Source: Acinetobacter phage vB_AbaP_Alexa. Taken from it: 40,237 bases of DNA. The stretch lies in the sequence record MT375042.1. One strand, 5' to 3'. Positions 3,495 to 40,220 of the stretch are shown here, in pieces. The translations under genes and the position numbers were made by a program. Each line of letters opens with the position of its first letter. Within the stretch, counting starts at the first letter, position 1. The notes below the pieces were generated by a model, which worked only from the letters and a program-made list of their open reading frames with translations, was not told the DNA's origin and did not search any database.

Positions 3495-5749
3495 AATTCC
3501 ACTTAACACTCGATACGGTTGCCCAAGCTTTATCTTATCTGGACTATAACGACCGCAAAGAATGGTACGAAATGGCGTTTGCTATTCGTTCCGAGTTCGG
3601 AAAGGAAGGCTATTCGGTTTGGGAAGAATGGGGCAGACAGTACGCCAAGTACGATAAAAAAGAAGCCGAAAACCAATGGCGTTCCGCTAAACCACACGGC
3701 GGGATTAACATTGGCACGCTTATCTACCGTGCGAAGCAAGCCGGCTTTGCATTCAACGATGACGATTGCGTCCAGATTTCACCCGAAGAAATTGCAGCAC
3801 GAAAGGCTAAACGCGAAGCAGACGAACGCCAGTACGCAGCGGAGCAAAAACAGATACGTGGCGAAGTCGCACGCCTTGCAAATCTTGCATGGGAAGCGTC
3901 ACTACCGGCGTATGAACACCCGTACACCACGCGCAAAGGCGTCAAAATTTACGGCGCGCGCATTGGTAATTTTCCAGTCTACAAAGCACCAGAACCCGGA
4001 AAGACGATTGAACCGTTCAAACAGATTCCGGCCCTACTGGTGCCTATCCACGCCAAAAGCGGGAAAATTGTATCGCTGCAAGCCTATTTCTTCGAAGATC
4101 AGCCGTTCTATGGCGACCGCGCCTATATGAAGGACGGACAGAAGCAAGGCGGCTATTGCTTAATCGGTTCACCGCGCGACAAAATGGCGATTGTCGAAGG
4201 CTATGCGACTGGGTGTTCAGTCCATGAAGCGACCGGCTGGACTGTCATTGTCGCATTCGACAAGGGCAATCTAAAGAAGGTTGCGGAGATAACACGCAAA
4301 AACTTCCCGCAGGCTGAAATTATCATCGCCGGGGATAACGACGTTTCAGGCGATGGTAACAAAGCCGCAGCCGAAGCCGGACAGGCCATTAATGGTCGTG
4401 TCATCCTTCCGCCTACGGCTGGCATGGACTGGAACGACGTACACCAGCGCGACGGCTTGGAAGCGGTACAGTCGGCACTTATGGCGCATTTGTTGCCAAA
4501 GCCGGCCAATGACAACGCACCGGTCGAATTTGACCACTACACGCCATTTATCGACATTACAGCGCAGGGCAAGCCAAAGGCGACCATTGACAACGTGAAA
4601 GAACTTTTGCGCCGAATGGGTGCGGTCGTCCGTTACAATGTCATCAAGAAAGACGTCGAAATCCTTATACCGGGGCACAGCGCAAGCCGTGACAATCGCC
4701 TTGTGTCGTGCATTACGCACATCATTTCAAAGTGCAATCTGGTAGGCATTCCGACCGGTGGCATTGAAGGATTTTTGACAACCATTGCCGACGAAAACCA
4801 GTACAACCCGGTTTTGACGTGGGTTCATTCACGACCTTGGGACGGTGTCAAGCGCTGGGATGAATTTTGTAAGACCGTTACCCCAAAACAGGAAAAGCTA
4901 TTACCGGACGGCACGCCTTTACACGTGGCGCTAATCAAACGCTGGATGCTTTCGGCTATTGCCGCAGCGAACCGCGACGGGACCGCGTTGCAAGGTATGT
5001 TGGTTCTTCAAGGTGAACAGGGTTTAGGTAAAACAAGCTGGCTTAAATCGCTGGTGCCGAACGACCTAGACATTGTCCGTGACGGCTTAATTTTGAAGCT
5101 GGACGACAAGGACAGCATTAAGCGGGTAATTTCGTTCTGGCTGGTCGAACTTGGCGAAATCGACGCCACGTTCAGGAAGTCAGACCAATCTGCGCTAAAA
5201 GCCTTTCTTACCAAGGACAGCGACGGCATACGCCTACCCTATGCGCGCGGTGAATCTGAGTTCGGCAGACGGACGGCGTTTTTTGGTTCCGTAAACCCTA
5301 AATCGTTCTTGCACGATGAAACCGGGTCGCGCCGATACTGGACGATTGAATGCGAACACGTCGACTACGAACACGCGTTCGACATGCAACAGGTATGGGC
5401 GGAAATCCAAGCGGCATACGATGGCGGCATGCACTGGCACTTGTCACCAGCGGAAGCGGACGCGCTGAACGATAGCAATAACGAACATATGGCCGTCGAC
5501 CCTATCGAAGAACGTATTTTATCGCGTCTGGATTGGTCGGCACCGTTCACCGAATGGCGATGGATTCAGGCCACGGAACTGTTAATCGAAATCGGTATCG
5601 ACAGACCTACCCGCGCCGATTCAACGAATGCCGGTTCCGTGGTGCGGAAGCATAACGAAGGCAAGAGCAAGCGGAGCAACGGGAAAACGTTGCTTCTGGT
5701 TCCGCCTAAATTATCTCCGATGGGCAATGACTACGACAGGCCGTTCTAA
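3491..5749 (+). CDS. DNA primase with PriCT-2 N-terminal domain, TOPRIM domain and VirE-like C-terminal NTPase region
   Basis: The N-terminus (WEEWGRQYAKYD...GTLIYRAKQAG) resembles PriCT-2. The TOPRIM region reads AIVEGYATG...IIIAGDNDVSGDGNKAA. A Walker A motif GEQGLGKTS lies in a VirE/D5-like region. Confidence 0.8.
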   Translation: MKFHLTLDTVAQALSYLDYNDRKEWYEMAFAIRSEFGKEGYSVWEEWGRQYAKYDKKEAENQWRSAKPHGGINIGTLIYRAKQAGFAFNDDDCVQISPEEIAARKAKREADERQYAAEQKQIRGEVARLANLAWEASLPAYEHPYTTRKGVKIYGARIGNFPVYKAPEPGKTIEPFKQIPALLVPIHAKSGKIVSLQAYFFEDQPFYGDRAYMKDGQKQGGYCLIGSPRDKMAIVEGYATGCSVHEATGWTVIVAFDKGNLKKVAEITRKNFPQAEIIIAGDNDVSGDGNKAAAEAGQAINGRVILPPTAGMDWNDVHQRDGLEAVQSALMAHLLPKPANDNAPVEFDHYTPFIDITAQGKPKATIDNVKELLRRMGAVVRYNVIKKDVEILIPGHSASRDNRLVSCITHIISKCNLVGIPTGGIEGFLTTIADENQYNPVLTWVHSRPWDGVKRWDEFCKTVTPKQEKLLPDGTPLHVALIKRWMLSAIAAANRDGTALQGMLVLQGEQGLGKTSWLKSLVPNDLDIVRDGLILKLDDKDSIKRVISFWLVELGEIDATFRKSDQSALKAFLTKDSDGIRLPYARGESEFGRRTAFFGSVNPKSFLHDETGSRRYWTIECEHVDYEHAFDMQQVWAEIQAAYDGGMHWHLSPAEADALNDSNNEHMAVDPIEERILSRLDWSAPFTEWRWIQATELLIEIGIDRPTRADSTNAGSVVRKHNEGKSKRSNGKTLLLVPPKLSPMGNDYDRPF

Positions 5750-28958: not shown

Positions 28959-29170
28959 TGCCGCAAGAGTACCGCACCAAAGACGGCGACACCGTCGATT
29001 TTATCGCATGGAAGCAATACGGCAGCACGGACAACCGTGTCGTCGAAAAAGTCCTAGCGGCCAATTTAGGGCTTGCAGACATAGGGCCAATTTTACCGGC
29101 TGGCTTGGTGATTACCTTGCCAGACGTTGAACCAGAACAAAAAACCGCCAAGGTGAAACTATGGGATTAA
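28958..29170 (+). CDS. Tail protein X (P2 gpX-like, LysM-like)
   Basis: A 70-aa ORF (YRTKDGDTVDFIAWKQYG) between U and D. Confidence 0.65.
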   Translation: MPQEYRTKDGDTVDFIAWKQYGSTDNRVVEKVLAANLGLADIGPILPAGLVITLPDVEPEQKTAKVKLWD

Positions 29171-30156
29171 GACCGGGGTTTATGGTCATTGCGAATGACG
29201 CAAACATTACCGCAGCCATTGCCGAACGATTTTCCAGCATAACGATAACTGACGCGGTCGGTTTTGAATCTGACATGCTGGAAATTGTAATCACTGACGA
29301 CCCGCAAAACCCGGTTGCCTTGCCTTCGACTGGTGCGGAATTGACCGTCTCACTTGGTTACGACGGCGCACTTACGAACATGGGTGTTTTTGTCGTCGAC
29401 GAAATCGAATTGAACGGCTGGCCGGCTAACATGGTCATTCGTGGCCGTGCGTCTGTCCAGACTGAAAGCAAGCAAGGCAAAACGTCGTTGCTGACACAGA
29501 AGTCGCGAAGCTGGAAGGAAGGCACGACAATCGGTGACGTCGTCAAAAAGATCGCCAGCGAACACAGCATGCAGCCGCAAGTTAGCGATTCACTGACAAG
29601 CCTTAAAATACCGCACATGGACCAGACAGACGAAAGCGACTTATCGTTCTTGGTGCGCCTATCACGTCGTTATGATGCGGTGTGCAAGCCAGCCGGCGGC
29701 AAACTGCTATTCGTGAAGCGTGGCGAGTCTGATTTACAGCCTATCACTATCATGGCGACCGAAAACAGCACGTACACCATGACGCTGTCACGCCGTGAAA
29801 GTCCGGGCACGGTAATTGCATACTGGCACAGCAAGAAACAGGCGAAAAAGAACGAAGTCAAAGTCGGTGACGGTGAACCGGTGCGACGCCTTCGCCATGC
29901 CTATGCAGACGAAGCCACGGCCAAAGCTGCGGCACAGGCAGAGCTAGACGCGCGGAAACGTGGCGAACAAAAGCTAAGCCTATCGCTACCGGGCGACCCA
30001 TCATACAGTGCCGAAGCGCCATTGATTACAATGGGGTTTAGGCCAGACGTCGACGGGGATTGGCTTGCGTGCAGCGTTACGCACACGTTGGATAAGAACA
30101 CCGGGTATTCGTCCCAGATCGAAGCAGAAAAGCCGAACCAGTCCGAAGAAGATTAA
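29161..30156 (+). CDS. Tail protein D (phage late control D family)
   Basis: A 331-aa ORF in the last position of the P2-like tail operon. Confidence 0.75.
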   Translation: MGLRPGFMVIANDANITAAIAERFSSITITDAVGFESDMLEIVITDDPQNPVALPSTGAELTVSLGYDGALTNMGVFVVDEIELNGWPANMVIRGRASVQTESKQGKTSLLTQKSRSWKEGTTIGDVVKKIASEHSMQPQVSDSLTSLKIPHMDQTDESDLSFLVRLSRRYDAVCKPAGGKLLFVKRGESDLQPITIMATENSTYTMTLSRRESPGTVIAYWHSKKQAKKNEVKVGDGEPVRRLRHAYADEATAKAAAQAELDARKRGEQKLSLSLPGDPSYSAEAPLITMGFRPDVDGDWLACSVTHTLDKNTGYSSQIEAEKPNQSEED

Positions 30157-30207
30157 AAATAGTTTAAAATAATTATTGACGATTAAAAGTAATTATATTA
30201 CTATTCA

Positions 30208-30239
30208 ATCACGGCCACAGATTAAGCCGTGATTTTTTT
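30208..30239 (+). terminator. Intrinsic terminator (ATCACGGC-loop-GCCGTGAT followed by T7)
   Basis: An 8-bp perfect stem, a 10-nt loop and TTTTTTT, directly after gene D. Confidence 0.65.
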
Positions 30240-30260
30240 AATATTTGATAGGGTTATTAC

Positions 30261-30543
30261 CATGAACGAACGTAACGAATTGCCAGAAATATTTCAATTA
30301 ACCGCTGAACAACAAGCCGAACTTGAGAAGTTAGCCGACGCACTTCATGCAAAATGTGTCGAGTTTGAAGCGCCGGTAATGATTACCATTTGTATCGGTA
30401 ATGATGGTGACGGTTGGAGTGCTGGCGAAGCAAATTATTTTAACGGTTATCGTACACCGGAAGCTATGGCTTTAGCAAGAACAATTATCGACAAGAATAT
30501 TACAAGCCAGATGCAATTATTAACAATGGGCTTTGGTCGATAA
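30261..30543 (+). CDS. Accessory-island hypothetical protein 1
   Basis: ATG at 30261 within ORF 30229-30543. AGGG lies 8 nt upstream. No motif was recognised. Confidence 0.4.
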
Positions 30544-30604
30544 AACATCATTCAACATGCCGCCTTGTGCGGCATTTCTTAAAAGTATTTGGAGTAATTT
30601 TATA

Positions 30605-31288
30605 ATGTCATATTTAACAAAAGCAGTTCGCGAAAACATGCGCAAAACAGTACTTGATCACGCTTTCAAAGAACGTGAAGATGCAGCAAAGGCGGAATTA
30701 GTTGCGGCTGGTGATGCTCTATACATGGCGCACCATGGGCCACACTTAAAAGCTATGCAAAGTCTGCCTAAAACGTTTTTATATGAATCCAGTTACATGG
30801 ATACGAACCTTGGTGGGCAGCGTCATAATGTTAAATTGAGTGACCGTAAACTTATGTCATACGAGAGCAATGTTTCTAGAATTGTCTTTGAAGCTAACGA
30901 CCCTGCTGTAATTAATTATCTTCAAGCAAATAAAAAATTAGATGATATTAAAGAACAGCGCAGCACCATGTATAACAAAGTAACCGCTATCTTGGAAAGC
31001 GTCCGTACCTTCAAAAAATTATGGGAAGTTTGGCCGGAAGCTAAGCCACTTCTGGAAAAGTACGAAGAAAAACCGCCAGTGGCTTATTTACCAGCGATTC
31101 AATTTGACAAGGTCAATGCAGCGTTGAACCTTCCACCAGACACAAACGAACTTCCTTGGACGCACCGCATGAATGGCGAAGGCGCATACGAAATCGGCTA
31201 CTTCGGGCCAAACGGGTTCGTGAAAACTGACGAAGCCGCAACGTTAGACCAAGCTAAGTCAATCGTGGACGGCCATAACAATGCATGA
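30605..31288 (+). CDS. Accessory-island hypothetical protein 2
   Basis: ATG at 30605 with GGAG upstream (227 aa). No motif was recognised. Confidence 0.45.
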   Translation: MSYLTKAVRENMRKTVLDHAFKEREDAAKAELVAAGDALYMAHHGPHLKAMQSLPKTFLYESSYMDTNLGGQRHNVKLSDRKLMSYESNVSRIVFEANDPAVINYLQANKKLDDIKEQRSTMYNKVTAILESVRTFKKLWEVWPEAKPLLEKYEEKPPVAYLPAIQFDKVNAALNLPPDTNELPWTHRMNGEGAYEIGYFGPNGFVKTDEAATLDQAKSIVDGHNNA

Positions 31289-31295
31289 CCTAGTT

Positions 31296-31394
31296 ATGTT
31301 TGTCTTGGCGCTAGGCATTTCATTTTGCCTATGCGTATTGGCAGCGGTTTATTATGTCTTGGTTGAAAAAGTGGTGAGTTTATGGAAGTTTTAA
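31296..31394 (+). CDS. Candidate 32-aa hydrophobic single-TM peptide (MFVLALGISFCLCVLAAVYYVLVEKVVSLWKF)
   Basis: A complete ATG...TAA ORF filling the gap between neighbours. It overlaps the next gene start by 13 nt in another frame. Confidence 0.25.
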   Translation: MFVLALGISFCLCVLAAVYYVLVEKVVSLWKF

Positions 31395-31981
31395 AAGAGT
31401 ATTTAGACACGGATTATGTTTTGCGGAAGGTAAAACAAACAAGCGGTAATAATCGTGTTCCTAATGGATGGATAGAAGTACCAGAGGGCGCGGAATGCTT
31501 ATTGTTTCTTAAAAATGTGCAAGAATATCGCTTTACAAAGTTGGTTAGTTTGAATGTTTATTCGTTCAATCCAGAAAGAGAAAAACGCTGGTATGTTTCA
31601 CCAGTATATGACGTTGTAACAGGTACAAGCAATACCCGCGTTTTATGGCAACGCCCTACCCTACCGGAAGCGCTACCGTTCATTGATGACGAACCGCCGG
31701 CATACTACGGCAACGCAATCCGACCTAAGCCGCGTAAGCGCATGTATGCAGGGATTGGCCGTAAAGTTATCAATGTGACAATTCAAATTCCGGCACCAGT
31801 CGAACATATCACTTTTACGGGCACAGTTTTTGAACCCGTTGACGATGATTGCGTCCGGGTCCCGAAGGCTTCGGCAGACTATCTATTCAACACGGTTCGG
31901 CAAATGCTGGCGGATGACTTCTTATCCAAGGACCAAAAAGAGTCGGTATTACATCACTTAAATTATTTGAAGGTGCATTGA
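31382..31981 (+). CDS. Accessory-island hypothetical protein 3
   Basis: A 199-aa ORF with an ATG start. No motif was recognised. Confidence 0.45.
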   Translation: MEVLKEYLDTDYVLRKVKQTSGNNRVPNGWIEVPEGAECLLFLKNVQEYRFTKLVSLNVYSFNPEREKRWYVSPVYDVVTGTSNTRVLWQRPTLPEALPFIDDEPPAYYGNAIRPKPRKRMYAGIGRKVINVTIQIPAPVEHITFTGTVFEPVDDDCVRVPKASADYLFNTVRQMLADDFLSKDQKESVLHHLNYLKVH

Positions 31982-31982
31982 T

Positions 31983-32177
31983 ATGGCCGTCACCACGATT
32001 GAAACAACATACGCCACCAAAGGCGAATTTATGAAGCGTGTCGAACGCAAAAACACCAAGTCGGATATGTCGCGCATTCTGGCCGACTTTCATTGGGTAT
32101 TGACCGATGAAACGTTATCCGACGCGGAAAAAATCAAGGCGCTGAAAGATGCGCACCACCGGATATGTTGGGGCTAA
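31983..32177 (+). CDS. Accessory-island hypothetical protein 4
   Basis: A 64-aa ORF starting 2 nt after the previous stop. Confidence 0.35.
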   Translation: MAVTTIETTYATKGEFMKRVERKNTKSDMSRILADFHWVLTDETLSDAEKIKALKDAHHRICWG

Positions 32178-32551
32178 TTATGTTACGTGATAAATTTGCA
32201 ATGGCTGCGATGCAAGCCATATTAAGCGATGCTGTAACTTGGAAACATTTTATTCAAACGGCGCAAAAAACGAACATGCAACTTAATGACGTCGTGGCAG
32301 CAACGGCATACGAATTTGCCGACGCCATGATGCGCGAACGCGAAAAGTGGGATTTCAGCAACGACCCAGACAACCCGGAAGGTCATACCAATGGGTTCGA
32401 CCCGGAGGAACGGGAAGCGGCGCAAGGGAAGGCAGTTCCGCCGGAAGTTCCACGACCGCCGATACACTACCCAGACGGCGCAAGAGGTGGTTATCAACCA
32501 CAGAAAAGCGGCAAGGACGATGATATAAAATCTCCACCGCGCAAACCTTAA
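32165..32551 (+). CDS. Accessory-island hypothetical protein 5 (Pro/Gly-rich C-terminus)
   Basis: A 128-aa ORF. An alternative ATG at 32180 avoids the overlap and has GGGG 7 nt upstream. Confidence 0.4.
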   Translation: MLGLIMLRDKFAMAAMQAILSDAVTWKHFIQTAQKTNMQLNDVVAATAYEFADAMMREREKWDFSNDPDNPEGHTNGFDPEEREAAQGKAVPPEVPRPPIHYPDGARGGYQPQKSGKDDDIKSPPRKP

Positions 32552-32581
32552 TTGAAATGATATTAAGTGAGTGATTTAATT

Positions 32582-32806
32582 ATGAAGATTTACAGTTTTA
32601 AAGCGAATGGCGGCGGGTGCCGTGTTAGTGGCCGCATCAAAGCCGAGAACATGCAAGACGCAACGCAACAGGCGTTAAAAGCGGTAGAGGGTTACGGGCC
32701 AATGAACGTAAACCTAACTGAGCTACGCAACCAAACTAAAGCCATGAAAGAATGGGAAAACAGAGGAAAGCAGCCAAGCGGCATACCTTACGATGAAACC
32801 ATGTAA
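32582..32806 (+). CDS. Accessory-island small protein with a possible UPF0150/HicB-like fold
   Basis: MKIYSFKANGGGCRVSGRIKAENMQDATQQALKAVEGY loosely resembles the HicB/UPF0150 N-terminal pattern. The fold assignment is tentative. Confidence 0.3.
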   Translation: MKIYSFKANGGGCRVSGRIKAENMQDATQQALKAVEGYGPMNVNLTELRNQTKAMKEWENRGKQPSGIPYDETM

Positions 32807-32808
32807 CC

Positions 32809-32832
32809 GAACCCGCCTAGTGCGGGTTTTTT
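32809..32832 (+). terminator. Intrinsic terminator (GAACCCGC-loop-GCGGGTT followed by T6)
   Basis: A GC stem, a 5-nt loop and TTTTTT, right after the last island ORF. Confidence 0.65.
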
Positions 32833-32943: not shown

Positions 32944-32995
32944 TGGTACAGCCGAAGGGATTCGAACCCCTGACCCCCAGATCCACAATCGGGTA
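32944..32995 (-). other. 3' half of a tRNA gene (T-arm, acceptor 3' strand and CCA) with no 5' half: attP-like core
   Basis: The minus strand reads ...GGGGTCAGGGGTTCGAATCCCTTCGGCTGTACCA, with a TTCGAAT T-loop, a 7-nt acceptor strand and CCA. No complementary 5' acceptor strand (ACAGCCG) was seen in the ~65 bp of minus-strand upstream sequence checked (plus 33000-33060). Confidence 0.6.
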
Positions 32996-33127: not shown

Positions 33128-33601
33128 GTGAAGGACACCCATATGAGCATAAAACCACGACTTCCACAAAACGCTATCTACGCAATTGTCGCTTACGCAA
33201 AAGGTTATCACGTTGTATCAAAAGCCAAGGCTAACGGAAGTTGGTTTGATATTGTGGAGTTTGCCGACTTTGATTTTGTTGATGGGCACGAGTTCAAGAT
33301 ACTTGAGCCAGTGCAAAATGAAGCAAGTAAGACTGAACCAGAAACATCAAATATAGCTGAAATAGCCATATTAAATAAATTGGACTGGTCGATACAAAAT
33401 AACCTTTGGCGCTGGGTTAAAGCTAGTGAATTAATGGATGAGCTTGGTCTTTGCAGTAAAAACAGGGGTGATCAGGTGGTCAAGTTTGGGAAGATTGTCG
33501 GTTCACACCACAGAATAAAAAGACGACGATACCAAGGGTTCAATCAAATACTAGTGCCTCCACTAAAAAAACACGAACCAGAAAGCACGGACTTATTTTA
33601 A
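33128..33601 (+). CDS. Hypothetical protein whose C-terminus is paralogous to the primase C-terminus
   Basis: LDWSIQNNLWRWVKASELMDELGL...VVKFGK...ILVPPLKK matches the primase tail DWSAPFTEWRWIQATELLIEIGI...VVRKHN...LLVPPKL. Its stop abuts the int start. Confidence 0.45.
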   Translation: MKDTHMSIKPRLPQNAIYAIVAYAKGYHVVSKAKANGSWFDIVEFADFDFVDGHEFKILEPVQNEASKTEPETSNIAEIAILNKLDWSIQNNLWRWVKASELMDELGLCSKNRGDQVVKFGKIVGSHHRIKRRRYQGFNQILVPPLKKHEPESTDLF

Positions 33602-34795
33602 ATGCTGACAGACGCACAAATCCGCACGGCTATAAAATCGGTCGTCAATGAAACAGTCTTGAACGATGGCGGCAACGGTCGCGGCACCGGGGCGCTTAAA
33701 TTGGTCATCCGTCGCCTATCCGATGGCGGAACGTCTGCCGTATGGTTCGCCCATTGGAAAAAGAATGGACAGCGCACCAAGAAAGCGATTGGCCGCTATC
33801 CGGACTTGAACGCGAAACAGGCACGCGCCGAATTTAATGCGAACCATAGCGGCCAGTCTGTAATTACGTTTAAACGTAATGAACGACCGACAATCGAAAA
33901 AATGTTCAATGGTTACATTGAATCAATGAGAGCCAAGAACCGCGCGTCCGCCGATGAAGTCGAACGCGTGCTTAAAAAGGCGGCAAAGGAGTTCGGCATA
34001 AATCGCCTACCTTCCGATATTTCACACGCTGACATTGTAAATTTCATAGGCGGCTATTACGACCGTGGTTATCGTGGCGCAGCCGACAAAGCACGCGCCT
34101 ATCTGTCCGCCGCGTTCGGCTGGGCCGTGAAGGCTGCGAACGACTACACACAAAAGACCCGTTACGACTGGGGCATCAAACATAACCCGGTGACGGACAT
34201 ACCGAAAGACACCGAAGCCAGCACGCTGCGCAACCAGACACTAACCCCGGACGAAATCCGCGACGTCTGGAAGTCTGAAAAATGGACCATAGAAGTTCAT
34301 GCATGCGTGCAATTGATTTTAGCGACCGGCCAGCGTGTCGAAGAATGTTTGCGGCTGCATGGTGACGAGTTGGACCTAGACGCCGCGTTATGGCACATGC
34401 CAGCGCATAAAACGAAAGGCCGAAGCCGTCCGCATACAATCCCCCTACCCGCTGTCATTATCCCTATTCTGCGCGAATTGGTGGCGCTACACGGCTATGG
34501 TCCATTATTCCCCGGTCGGACTGGTTCCAAGCAAAAGTATATCGGTCATCGTGCCGTCAATCGTGCGCTGAAAAAGAATGTACCCGAAGGCATCCAAGCA
34601 CGTGACTTGCGCCGTACATGGAAAAGCCGCGCTGGTGAAATTGGTATTCCCAAGGAAGTGCGCGACCTTATCCAGCAACACACGAACGGCGATACCGGGT
34701 CGAAGCATTACGACCGTGGCGACTATGTGCCAATGATGCGCGAAGCAATGAATAAATATGGTGATTGGTTATTGACGGTTATAAATAAAAAGTAA
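33602..34795 (+). CDS. int: Tyrosine integrase (P4-type, with an N-terminal DUF4102-like arm-binding domain)
   Basis: The N-terminus has GALKLVIRRLSDGGTSAVWFAHWK. The catalytic region has LATGQRVEE (Arg), HTIPLP, HRAVNR, RDLRRTWKS and HTNGDTGSKHYDRGDY (His...Tyr). Confidence 0.9.
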   Translation: MLTDAQIRTAIKSVVNETVLNDGGNGRGTGALKLVIRRLSDGGTSAVWFAHWKKNGQRTKKAIGRYPDLNAKQARAEFNANHSGQSVITFKRNERPTIEKMFNGYIESMRAKNRASADEVERVLKKAAKEFGINRLPSDISHADIVNFIGGYYDRGYRGAADKARAYLSAAFGWAVKAANDYTQKTRYDWGIKHNPVTDIPKDTEASTLRNQTLTPDEIRDVWKSEKWTIEVHACVQLILATGQRVEECLRLHGDELDLDAALWHMPAHKTKGRSRPHTIPLPAVIIPILRELVALHGYGPLFPGRTGSKQKYIGHRAVNRALKKNVPEGIQARDLRRTWKSRAGEIGIPKEVRDLIQQHTNGDTGSKHYDRGDYVPMMREAMNKYGDWLLTVINKK

Positions 34796-34799
34796 TATT

Positions 34800-35186
34800 A
34801 TTTCTTTATTGATCGAATCTGTGGGCGACACAGTATATTAACGGAGCTTATAGGTAGTTCATTTAGTTGGCTCTATACCATGCAACTATTCGCACGTTGC
34901 CGATCAACAGTGTAAACAAATGACAGCCGGGAAAGACCGGCAATTTTACCCATCTGACGAGCTTGTGAAATTCAAGCGAAACCGCAAGGTCATGGGACAG
35001 AGCGCCTAGTTACGAGGACTGCCAGCCGAAAGCGCTCGAAGGTTGGACGGCATAGCACGATATTGGTCGATTGTCCTTCAACGGGAATGAACCATAAAAG
35101 CCGCTATGGGCACAAGGGAAGTTGATGACAGCTTGGAAAGACAGCAATAAGCTTTGGATTGGGCATTCCCGGTCGGCTTAAAAGAG
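34800..35186 (+). ncRNA. Candidate structured non-coding RNA region (no ORF of 60 aa or more; several GC stems)
   Basis: Nested or adjacent stems: GCCGG-GAAAGA-CCGGC, CCCAT...ATGGG, GAGCGC...GCGCTC and GGAC...GTCC. The region ends at a strong terminator. Strand and existence are unverified. Confidence 0.25.
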
Positions 35187-35219
35187 AACCCGCAATGTTG
35201 TGAAACATGGCGGGTTTTG
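35187..35219 (+). terminator. Long hairpin (13-bp stem with one mismatch, GTGA tetraloop) followed by TTTTG
   Basis: AACCCGCAATGTT-GTGA-AACATGGCGGGTT followed by TTTT. Confidence 0.55.
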
Positions 35220-35322
35220 TTATATTGGGTATTCCTATTCTTTATGTAGTTTATCTAACCATAACAAAAGGAAATAACCATGAAAGACTGTTACGGCTTA
35301 GGCTGAATTTAGACCAAAAGAA

Positions 35323-35344
35323 AACCCGCTTAATGCGGGTTTTG
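35323..35344. terminator. Bidirectional terminator (CCCGC-TTAAT-GCGGG with T-runs on both strands)
   Basis: It sits at the point where int-side transcription and the leftward early operon (ending at 35330) converge. Confidence 0.55.
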
Positions 35345-39765: not shown

Positions 39766-39863
39766 ATTAAACCCCGTTATTGATGATTAAAATAAATTAG
39801 TGAATGCAACTATATCACAGCGATTATTATTTGTGAATACTTGTTATTACCTATTTATACATA

Positions 39864-40220
39864 TTATTGTCGTTTTTTGGTCGCAATAGGGTATGTGTCC
39901 ATTTTGGACAGAAAACTTACGTTCCGTAATACGTTGGACATTTTAAGCTTTGGCATGACTTTATTTGCGCCACTTTCCAGTTTTTCCGTGTATATAAGTT
40001 GCTTTTTGTCGTTCATCTTTAATAATCCTTGGTCCATAAGCGAACTGACACGACGTATAACGGTCGGTCGCGGCATCCCGATATATTCCGCTAACTTTGA
40101 CGGGGTCATGGGCTTGCCTTCATATTCACCAATCCCGGCACCCAACAAAATAATTATGTCGTCAATATTCCGCCCGAACCTGGCATCGTCAAAAGCTGCA
40201 ATGCTTGCCAGTTCCAGCAT
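39864..40220 (-). CDS. Winged-helix HTH transcriptional regulator
   Basis: MTPSKLAEYIGMPRPTVIRRVSSLMDQGLL is an HTH-like segment. It is the first gene of the leftward early region. Confidence 0.45.
   Translation of the reverse strand: MLELASIAAFDDARFGRNIDDIIILLGAGIGEYEGKPMTPSKLAEYIGMPRPTVIRRVSSLMDQGLLKMNDKKQLIYTEKLESGANKVMPKLKMSNVLRNVSFLSKMDTYPIATKKRQ

Follow-up and report, generated by a model that had tools for sequence, protein, structure and literature searches.

Does the segment between the last tail gene and the integrase of Acinetobacter phage vB_AbaP_Alexa carry an undescribed phage-borne system, or is it an accessory region of a familiar kind? The segment spans positions 30157–32832 of the window, which is the whole 40,237-nt stretch of sequence record MT375042.1. 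A reading of the letters alone (the original prediction) had described it as a terminator-bracketed island of orphan open reading frames (ORFs). The present analysis showed a seven-gene cassette with a promoter-like site, bracketing terminators, a backbone of families conserved in related phages, and two add-on genes. On balance, and with slightly better than even confidence, we read it as an autonomous, insulated, moron-like accessory operon of early-region-type phage proteins whose role is probably to benefit the phage during infection. The anatomy of the cassette is far more certain than its function.

The location between tail gene D and the att/int junction was borne out. Tail gene D (29161–30156, + strand), the final late gene, was recognised by Pfam Phage_GPD (E = 1.8e-12) and phrog_52 (tail, E = 2.9e-114), and its product gpD forms the left border of the accessory slot. 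The att core on the right is a tRNA/tmRNA-like 3′-end fragment (32944–32992, − strand) comprising T-arm, acceptor strand and CCA, detected as a sub-threshold Rfam tmRNA match (E = 1e-4). ARAGORN found no complete tRNA at this fragment, and in the search for a host tRNA or tmRNA target its 49-mer had no exact match in representative genomes. A 152-amino-acid (aa) ORF and then the integrase (33602–34795, Pfam) follow. Between gpD and this junction, seven coding ORFs (o1–o7) occupy 30262–32806. They proved as tightly packed as had been described: the sole gaps of more than 2 nt measure 61 and 30 nt, and the o2/o3 (as ATGCATGA) and o3/o4 junctions overlap. These overlaps and the Shine–Dalgarno-like sequences of o1–o7 were read directly off the sequence. 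A codon model trained on the long genes of the phage scored the own frame best for all seven ORFs (+0.19 to +0.35 bits/codon), with negative scores almost throughout the other frames of the region. The GC content was 0.40–0.44 in o1–o4, 0.49–0.51 in o5–o7, 0.53 in D and 0.52 in the integrase. The composition of o1–o4 is thus unlike that of the flanks, as is usual for morons.

Megablast with the island DNA found no close relative among deposited phages, and with the right half of the genome it gave merely 40–90-bp matches, located after the integrase gene. A search with gpD alone in IMG/VR and representative genomes found nothing. Related phages were recovered as Logan assemblies of about 33–41 kb carrying gpD homologues of 75–90% identity, of which six (L010–L015) were used. 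A seventh relative, L016, was reached through the closest homologue of o2, a member of the Nmad5 family, which brought the comparison to eight phages including Alexa.

All relatives showed a common frame of D, intergenic region, small ORFs, terminator, att and integrase, shortened by deletion in L014. A 31-nt part of att (32952–32982) is common to L011–L013 at 93.5%, and longer stretches are shared with L010 and L015. The slot holds 4–7 genes in the seven intact phages, each of which has lineage-unique ORFs. Five of the seven cassette families recur at the same place among the seven related phages: the o1 family is present in 8/8 phages, o4 in 6/8, and Nmad5, o3 and o6 each in 5/8. The o5 and o7 genes are confined to Alexa among the eight phages, L012 and L013 are without Nmad5, and L016 is without o4 and o6. 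Morons are typically present in some close relatives and absent from others; here o5, o7 and the unique ORFs of each relative vary, o1 is in all eight phages, and o4 and o6 are largely invariant. These counts indicate that much of the island is a lineage-conserved module, not free cargo. The proposed moron slot with variable content therefore stood in its conserved D-to-att frame and its partly variable content, but not as a description of the lineage-conserved remainder. The outcome named beforehand as contrary to it, the same genes forming a conserved core in relatives, was in part what the counts for o1, o4, Nmad5, o3 and o6 showed.

The island proteins were 30–77% identical among these phages, versus 75–91% for D and the integrase. 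Similarity at the DNA level is limited to short gene-junction blocks of 83–100% identity (30554–30608, 31135–31412 and 32177–32214). Conserved junction blocks together with diverged and swapped genes indicate that the module is a mosaic, exchanged through recombination at linkers that are conserved. L011 matches the 38-bp block at the o6 start (32177–32214) at 100%, and L015 matches 37 bp at 100%, in surroundings of about 70–80% identity; the block probably serves as a linker for recombination or is under constraint as a nucleotide sequence. The cargo ORFs of the relatives gave PHROG matches to unknown-function families only. In L014 (12102–12974), the Nmad5 gene lacks the o3-to-att segment behind it and runs straight into an integrase without its first ~126 residues. 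L014 has the appearance of a phage derived by deletion; it may be defective, or the assembly may be in error. More distantly, a prophage in the Acinetobacter sp. PK01 chromosome (L029, 10243–17343), whose gpD is 56% identical, has after D a 230-aa ORF, SRAP, a 639-aa KAP-family NTPase, Arc and Bro-N. The Tmn defence belongs to the KAP family. In L030 and L031, another integrase or molybdopterin genes of the host come directly after gpD.

The bracketing terminators of the original prediction were confirmed, at positions kept in the seven relatives. Terminator T1 of the late operon (30207–30239, + strand) begins 50 nt past the gpD end (30156) and consists of a 9-bp stem (30207–30234) with a 10-nt loop, followed by seven T residues to 30239. 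Its folding energy was −12.5 kcal/mol (z = −4.7; 0/200 shuffles equal). T1 is present in 8/8 phages with compensatory changes, such as CACGGC/GCCGTG versus CACGCC/GGCGTG and an outer U-A versus A-U pair. Terminator T2 (32810–32832, + strand) closes the cassette with a hairpin and T-run (−14.6 kcal/mol, z = −3.1) and aligns with the terminator portion of Rfam Trp_leader. It supplies the downstream terminator of its own that is looked for in a moron. A GC hairpin with a T-run also lies just before att in L010–L013, L015 and L016, in sequences unlike that of T2. A consensus terminator scanner listed neither T1 nor T2, though both fold well; its rules on loop length and tail probably account for this.

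A sigma-70-like promoter was predicted by a consensus scan at 30176–30204 (+ strand; TTGACG, 17-nt spacer, TACTAT). The D–o1 intergenic region has a mean identity of 81%, and within it the −35 element TTGAC is invariant and a TAnnnT −10 element stands at a fixed distance in all eight phages. In each of them the T1 hairpin begins 2–5 nt past the −10 element. Another promoter-like match (30579–30606) was dismissed, as its −10 element overlaps the o2 start codon. Between o1 and o2 there is an internal hairpin (30557–30580, + strand; ATGCCGC-cttgt-GCGGCAT followed by UUCUU), which was kept by the centroid fold. Its equivalents are a GC hairpin with UUUCUU in L010 and L011 and with CCUUUU in L015. 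The block that contains it (30554–30608) is conserved at the DNA level, and its z-score is weak (−1.1 to −1.8). This hairpin is possibly a partial terminator or attenuator, a reading we offer tentatively.

The best-defined protein of the cassette is o2 (Alexa_043; 30605–31288, + strand; 227 aa), with an Nmad5-family domain at aa 1–177 and a C-terminal β-β-β-α tail domain of about 45 aa. It matched Pfam PF18757 (Nmad5) with 93.2 bits (cut-off 27; E = 3.1e-26) over model positions 3–206 of 206, and phrog_1965 with E = 2.2e-27. Its relatives are labelled ‘Nmad5 family putative nucleotide modification protein’ by NCBI. The statement that none of the ORFs matches a recognised domain was therefore wrong, for o2 and equally for o6, described below. 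Nmad means ‘nucleotide modification associated’, and the family was named for its genomic association with base-modification genes. To our knowledge, the family has no defined biochemical activity. The AF2 model of o2 is a helical hairpin with a β hairpin and resembles the BFVD models of annotated Nmad5 phage proteins; it gave no enzyme-like fold match. The near-invariant Nmad5 residues are mostly hydrophobic, together with a KKLWE.WPE helix motif, and form no evident catalytic set. The association with base-modification enzymes was not found in Alexa; it is a property of the neighbourhoods of some members and not a criterion of membership.

The usual length of Acinetobacter Nmad5 proteins is 183–186 aa. 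The extra tail of o2 is present in the post-D copies of L011, L014 and L015 and missing in L016. In L010, the place of Nmad5 is taken by a phrog_2314/Mu_Gp12 protein with the same C-terminal tail (80% identity). No similarity was detected between the tail domain and o7. The UniProt/BFVD entry of the Alexa Nmad5 protein has 243 aa, implying a start at ATG 30557, and full-length homologues (227–232 aa) begin with MSYLTKA (30605). The extra 48 nt (30557–30604) contain the conserved intercistronic hairpin. Judged from these sequences, the deposited GenBank start of Alexa_043 is probably too far upstream. Elsewhere, Nmad5 is listed in the thymidine-hypermodification cassette of phage SN1 and M6-like phages (PMC9476957). 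A single Lys-to-Glu change in a Dhillonvirus Nmad5 lets the phage escape the Tmn defence; that protein is dispensable, its deletion gives no Tmn escape, and its cloning failed owing to toxicity (PMC11846954).

The tiny membrane peptide that the original prediction had noted is real and does overlap the next start, but its length is 37 aa and not 32. This gene, o3 (31281–31394, + strand), encodes the single-pass membrane peptide MHDLVMFVLALGISFCLCVLAAVYYVLVEKVVSLWKF; the gene overlaps the o2 stop at its 5′ end and the o4 start at its 3′ end. It is conserved from its first codon in L010–L013 (61–73% aa identity) with the N-terminus MHD, and its homologues always directly precede an o4 homologue. 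The pairwise ratio of non-synonymous to synonymous substitution (dN/dS) was 0.11–0.38 in all pairs, indicating purifying selection. The protein collection has no entry with exactly this sequence, the numbering Alexa_042–048 leaves no locus tag for it, and it is not annotated in GenBank. Conservation from the first codon, low dN/dS and the lack of an entry or tag indicate that o3 is a real unannotated gene.

The partner o4 (Alexa_044; 31382–31981, + strand; 199 aa) has an N-terminal β domain (aa 1–92), a disordered linker and two C-terminal helices. The signature of the N-domain is EYL..WIEVPEGAE..LWQR, and the linker carries conserved PFIDDEP and RPKPRKR motifs. Residues E6, Y7, L8, P34, G36, A37, W89, R91, L98 and F100 are invariant in the family alignment. 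The AF2 model had a pLDDT confidence of 65–90 in the N-domain and below 50 for residues 94–164 (about 70 disordered residues). No fold match was found with the model, and no PDB match with the sequence. The domain occurs in 1–3 tandem copies per protein, with one or two in the island homologues.

The first gene, o1 (Alexa_042; 30262–30543, + strand; 93 aa; coding score +0.35 bits/codon), represents a lineage-specific family with a homologue at the same position in 8/8 Alexa-like phages. A search of 1.84 billion representative proteins gave 6 matches only, and no match was found in Pfam, PHROG, PADLOC, NCBIfam or PDB. In phage P2, ogr sits between D and att with its own promoter, and the Ogr/Delta late activators carry a four-cysteine zinc-binding motif. 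An alignment of 13 o1-family members showed invariant M1, F11, E34 and P38 and no conserved Cys or His, which excludes o1 as an Ogr/Delta zinc-finger analogue. The o1 query also matched P0204, a 1774-aa exoprotein with a TPS domain and YDG repeats, at E = 1e-10 in four stretches including residues ~1210–1267. This similarity, a shared small domain or a compositional artefact, is probably not meaningful.

The o6 protein (Alexa_046; 32180–32551, + strand; 123 aa) has an N-terminal helical domain (MLRDKFAMAAMQ...AY.FADAMM.ER) and a low-complexity Pro-rich tail. Its N-terminal 55 residues match phrog_2201 (E = 1.7e-10) and three other PHROGs, including phrog_20565 and phrog_37111. The o6 homologues of L010, L011, L013 and L015 all begin with MLRDKF, and the domain also forms the end of small proteins encoded in the early regions of IMG/VR phages that are unrelated.

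The two variable add-ons are o5 (Alexa_045; 31983–32177, + strand; 64 aa), without a match in L010–L016, and o7 (Alexa_047; 32582–32806, + strand; 74 aa), absent from the seven relatives. The o5 protein is 84% and 81% identical to small ORFs of the lytic Acinetobacter phages Scuro and Cato, and the Scuro homologue sits directly after the DNA polymerase gene. The o7 protein is 45% identical to Scuro_27, located between the Scuro helicase and primase genes. The HicB/UPF0150-like N-terminus suggested for o7 found no support from profile models. With E ≤ 1 as the limit, Pfam gave no HicB/UPF0150 match and none passing threshold, only sub-threshold, unrelated KELK (0.017) and DUF6302 (0.036) matches. 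At the same limit, no HicA-like Pfam match was found in any island ORF.

All seven ORFs have homologues elsewhere, so that ‘orphan’ was a misnomer. In lambdoid Acinetobacter prophages, Nmad5 lies in the operon downstream of a CI-like repressor, two genes upstream of RecT and separated from it by a 350-aa ORF; in IMG/VR contigs it lies in replication regions. No relatives of o1, o3, o4 or o6 were found at the Nmad5 loci of these prophages and contigs. The o4 N-domain also occurs in an early-left-operon protein beside SSB in six relatives. Phage HFM1 encodes a 458-aa protein with three o4 N-domains among thymidylate synthase, deaminase and MazG genes, and in P0133 the domain is fused to dGTP_diPhyd_N, a dATP/dGTP diphosphohydrolase domain. 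Outside the Alexa lineage, the families thus occur singly in early, replication or recombination regions, and some of the host phages are strictly lytic. A single coherent new ‘system’ and a role in protecting lysogens are both made less likely by this distribution; the claim of an undescribed phage-carried system goes beyond the evidence.

Searches for defence and modification functions gave the following results. None of the seven ORFs matched any model of PADLOC-DB v2 (best E 0.023 and 0.029, 11–13 bits), so that the defence-profile check identified no component, and no known defence or anti-defence family, in the cassette. NCBIfam gave no significant match for any cassette ORF, and PDB profile and single-sequence searches with o1, o2, o4 and o6 were all insignificant. 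Fold searches, which had been proposed as a route to function, yielded neither an enzyme-like match for o2 nor any match for o4, as described above. Pfam scans of all sizeable Alexa ORFs detected no hydroxymethylase/thymidylate-synthase homologue, 5-hmdU (5-hydroxymethyldeoxyuridine) kinase, aGPT-Pplase, radical-SAM or PLP (pyridoxal phosphate) enzyme, glycosyltransferase or methyltransferase.

We propose that the cassette works as follows. Late (tail) transcripts would stop at T1 right after D. The sigma-70-like promoter upstream of T1 may fire about 6–8 nt past its −10 element, placing the start inside the 5′ arm of T1. Transcripts starting there would lack the full hairpin, escape T1 and read o1–o7 to T2. 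Genes downstream of the weaker but conserved o1–o2 hairpin (30557–30580) may be expressed at a reduced level because of it. The proteins made are those of a conserved backbone (o1, the Nmad5 protein o2, o3 translationally coupled to o4, and o6) and of the exchangeable add-ons o5 and o7, swapped at short conserved junctions. Their targets may be DNA-related processes of the host or the phage at an early stage of infection or induction, with counter-defence or host takeover as examples of such a role. The early, replication or recombination location of the families in other phages, some of them lytic, makes phage-benefit accessory factors most likely, and lysogen-protecting defence and virion functions less likely than such a role.

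Several points weigh against this account. The upstream promoter expected of a moron is represented by TTGACG-17-TACTAT, kept in eight phages, yet promoter-like matches in the region are not above chance (11 found versus 11.5 expected). Promoter activity and a start site inside the hairpin are suggested by conservation only, and the roles of all seven proteins are unproven. Expression in the lysogen, for lysogenic conversion or exclusion, would also agree with a consensus-like host promoter situated at the end of a prophage. Finally, o1 is lineage-universal and stands in the place of P2 ogr, and it could be a core regulator rather than an accessory gene.

The expression in lysogens leads to the alternative that the cassette is prophage-expressed cargo for defence or superinfection exclusion, with a constitutive promoter of its own and with o3 and o4, perhaps also Nmad5, blocking incoming phages. 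The moron-like architecture at the end of the prophage, where the cassette has a host-type promoter and a terminator of its own, the small conserved membrane peptide o3, the variation of content among relatives, and the KAP-family NTPase, SRAP and Bro-N/Arc genes after D in the distant Acinetobacter prophage all agree with it. We nevertheless regard it as unlikely: the PADLOC search matched none of the seven ORFs, the o5 and o7 homologues sit in Scuro replication modules with annotated DNA polymerase, helicase and primase, outside the Alexa lineage the families are nowhere combined into a set, and Nmad5 is carried by the lytic Dhillonvirus and by M6-like phages. Scuro and these Nmad5 phages have no lysogen to protect. 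A core phage function appears somewhat less probable again. Here o1 would be a late-gene or lysis–lysogeny regulator, and the other proteins would serve replication or recombination, or tail or virion completion. The presence of o1 in every phage directly after D and behind the conserved promoter-like site, the parallel with P2 ogr, and the near-universal o4 and o6 families speak for it. The lack of a conserved Cys/His set speaks against an Ogr/Delta zinc finger. In addition, the island proteins diverge much faster than D and integrase, whole genes are swapped or missing (L012, L013, L016, L014), and Pfam, PHROG and NCBIfam gave no match of any family to a model for virion, replication or regulator proteins. 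L014 has also lost everything after Nmad5, though its integrase is partly lost as well and the phage may be defective.

The name of the Nmad5 family, its place in the SN1/M6-like hypermodification cassette, and the o4 domain fused to a dATP/dGTP diphosphohydrolase domain (P0133) or lying among nucleotide-metabolism genes (HFM1) point to another idea, in which Nmad5 and its neighbours modify phage DNA against restriction. This is very improbable, since the Pfam scans of sizeable Alexa ORFs found no modification enzymes, the Nmad5 model (helical hairpin plus β hairpin) has no enzyme-like fold match and its near-invariant residues no evident catalytic set, and Nmad5 of other Acinetobacter prophages lies near recombination genes and not modification enzymes. 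A more ambitious version of the counter-defence idea seems doubtful to us: the conserved backbone (o1, the tail-bearing Nmad5, o3 with o4, and o6) could be an undescribed multi-protein counter-defence or exclusion device of Acinetobacter temperate myoviruses, whose Nmad5 and o4-domain components would interact with host immune systems related to DNA or nucleotides, KAP/Tmn-type sensors being one example. The reading as an accessory operon of early-region-type proteins that benefit the phage is therefore the one we retain, at the limited confidence given at the outset.

The remainder of the genome was also annotated. Phage vB_AbaP_Alexa is a singleton and a temperate myovirus according to a review listing (PMC11126041), and its gene content in Pfam and PHROG scans agrees with this. 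These scans showed a ResIII helicase, a VRR-NUC nuclease, a Toprim/VapE primase and lysis genes. The virion genes comprise a lambda-type terminase, a portal, a fused protease–capsid protein and P2-type baseplate and tail genes, the last being U, X and D. The scans also showed the integrase and an early operon, directed leftward, that encodes SSB, AAA_24 and a PDDEXK protein (Pfam, PHROG). The 152-aa ORF between att and integrase, o8 (Alexa_048, 33143–33601), is paralogous to the C-terminal part (~90 residues) of the Alexa Toprim/VapE primase (window 5420–5707; 35% identity, E about 1e-11). The att–int slot of the relatives contains other genes, such as a 156–157-aa HNH-motif ORF in L010 and L012, and this differing content makes it a second variable slot.

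About 520 nt after the integrase gene (34796–35320) contain no ORF of more than 50 aa and gave no Rfam match. This stretch is preceded by a promoter-like TTGACG-18-TATTAT (34772–34801), which repeats the TTATTGACG motif of the island promoter, and is ended by a bidirectional terminator (35321–35343). The sole megablast matches to deposited Acinetobacter phages fall here, at 34797–34836 (AB1-type phages) and 34821–34908 (vB_AQ1). Its product may be a small RNA or a peptide. The island promoter motif has a third near-copy, TTATTGATGATTAA, in the intergenic region at 39777–39790, beside a helix-turn-helix (HTH) gene (39864–40220). Three copies are not significant alone, as 13% of shuffles reach three.

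As it stands, the cassette is an ordinary kind of phage accessory region. Its map of a promoter-like site, terminators, five conserved families and two add-ons shows experimenters what to delete or clone. Nmad5 is one of the few proteins of this class with a defence-related phenotype (Tmn escape), and the Alexa o2 variant offers a simple temperate Acinetobacter model for finding the function of the family. Two corrections of the annotation follow, namely the addition of the 37-aa o3 gene and a new start for Alexa_043, which is probably mis-set in GenBank. Should the cassette prove to be a set of counter-defence genes, this could matter for choosing and engineering phages against Acinetobacter baumannii.

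Compared with known systems, o2 resembles other Nmad5 proteins, such as PhiSMS22 CDS6 of Dhillonvirus and SN1_019 of an M6-like phage, in its full-model match and as a non-structural phage protein. It differs from them in its extra C-terminal domain of about 45 aa and in its position behind the tail genes instead of within an early operon or modification cassette. Unlike the SN1/M6-like Nmad5, it has no partner modification enzymes that Pfam scans of Alexa could find. The cassette proteins also resemble the lambda ea/nin-type early ‘dark matter’ ORFs, because early, replication or recombination regions of other phages hold homologues of o2, the o4 N-domain, o5, the o6 N-domain and o7, none with an assigned function, whereas Alexa-like phages gather them after the last tail gene behind a promoter-like site of their own. 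With phage morons and prophage-end slots (the lambda b region, P2 D-ogr-att), the cassette shares the promoter-like site, terminators, deviating GC content, location between D and att/int, and variable content. Unlike single-gene morons, it is a seven-gene polycistron, and most of its families are lineage-conserved and not present/absent polymorphisms. T1 overlaps the promoter, so that, unlike in typical morons, insulation from late transcription seems built in. This kind of object is already known; what is new here is confined to the particular families, a form of Nmad5 that carries an additional tail domain, and one peptide gene missing from the annotation.

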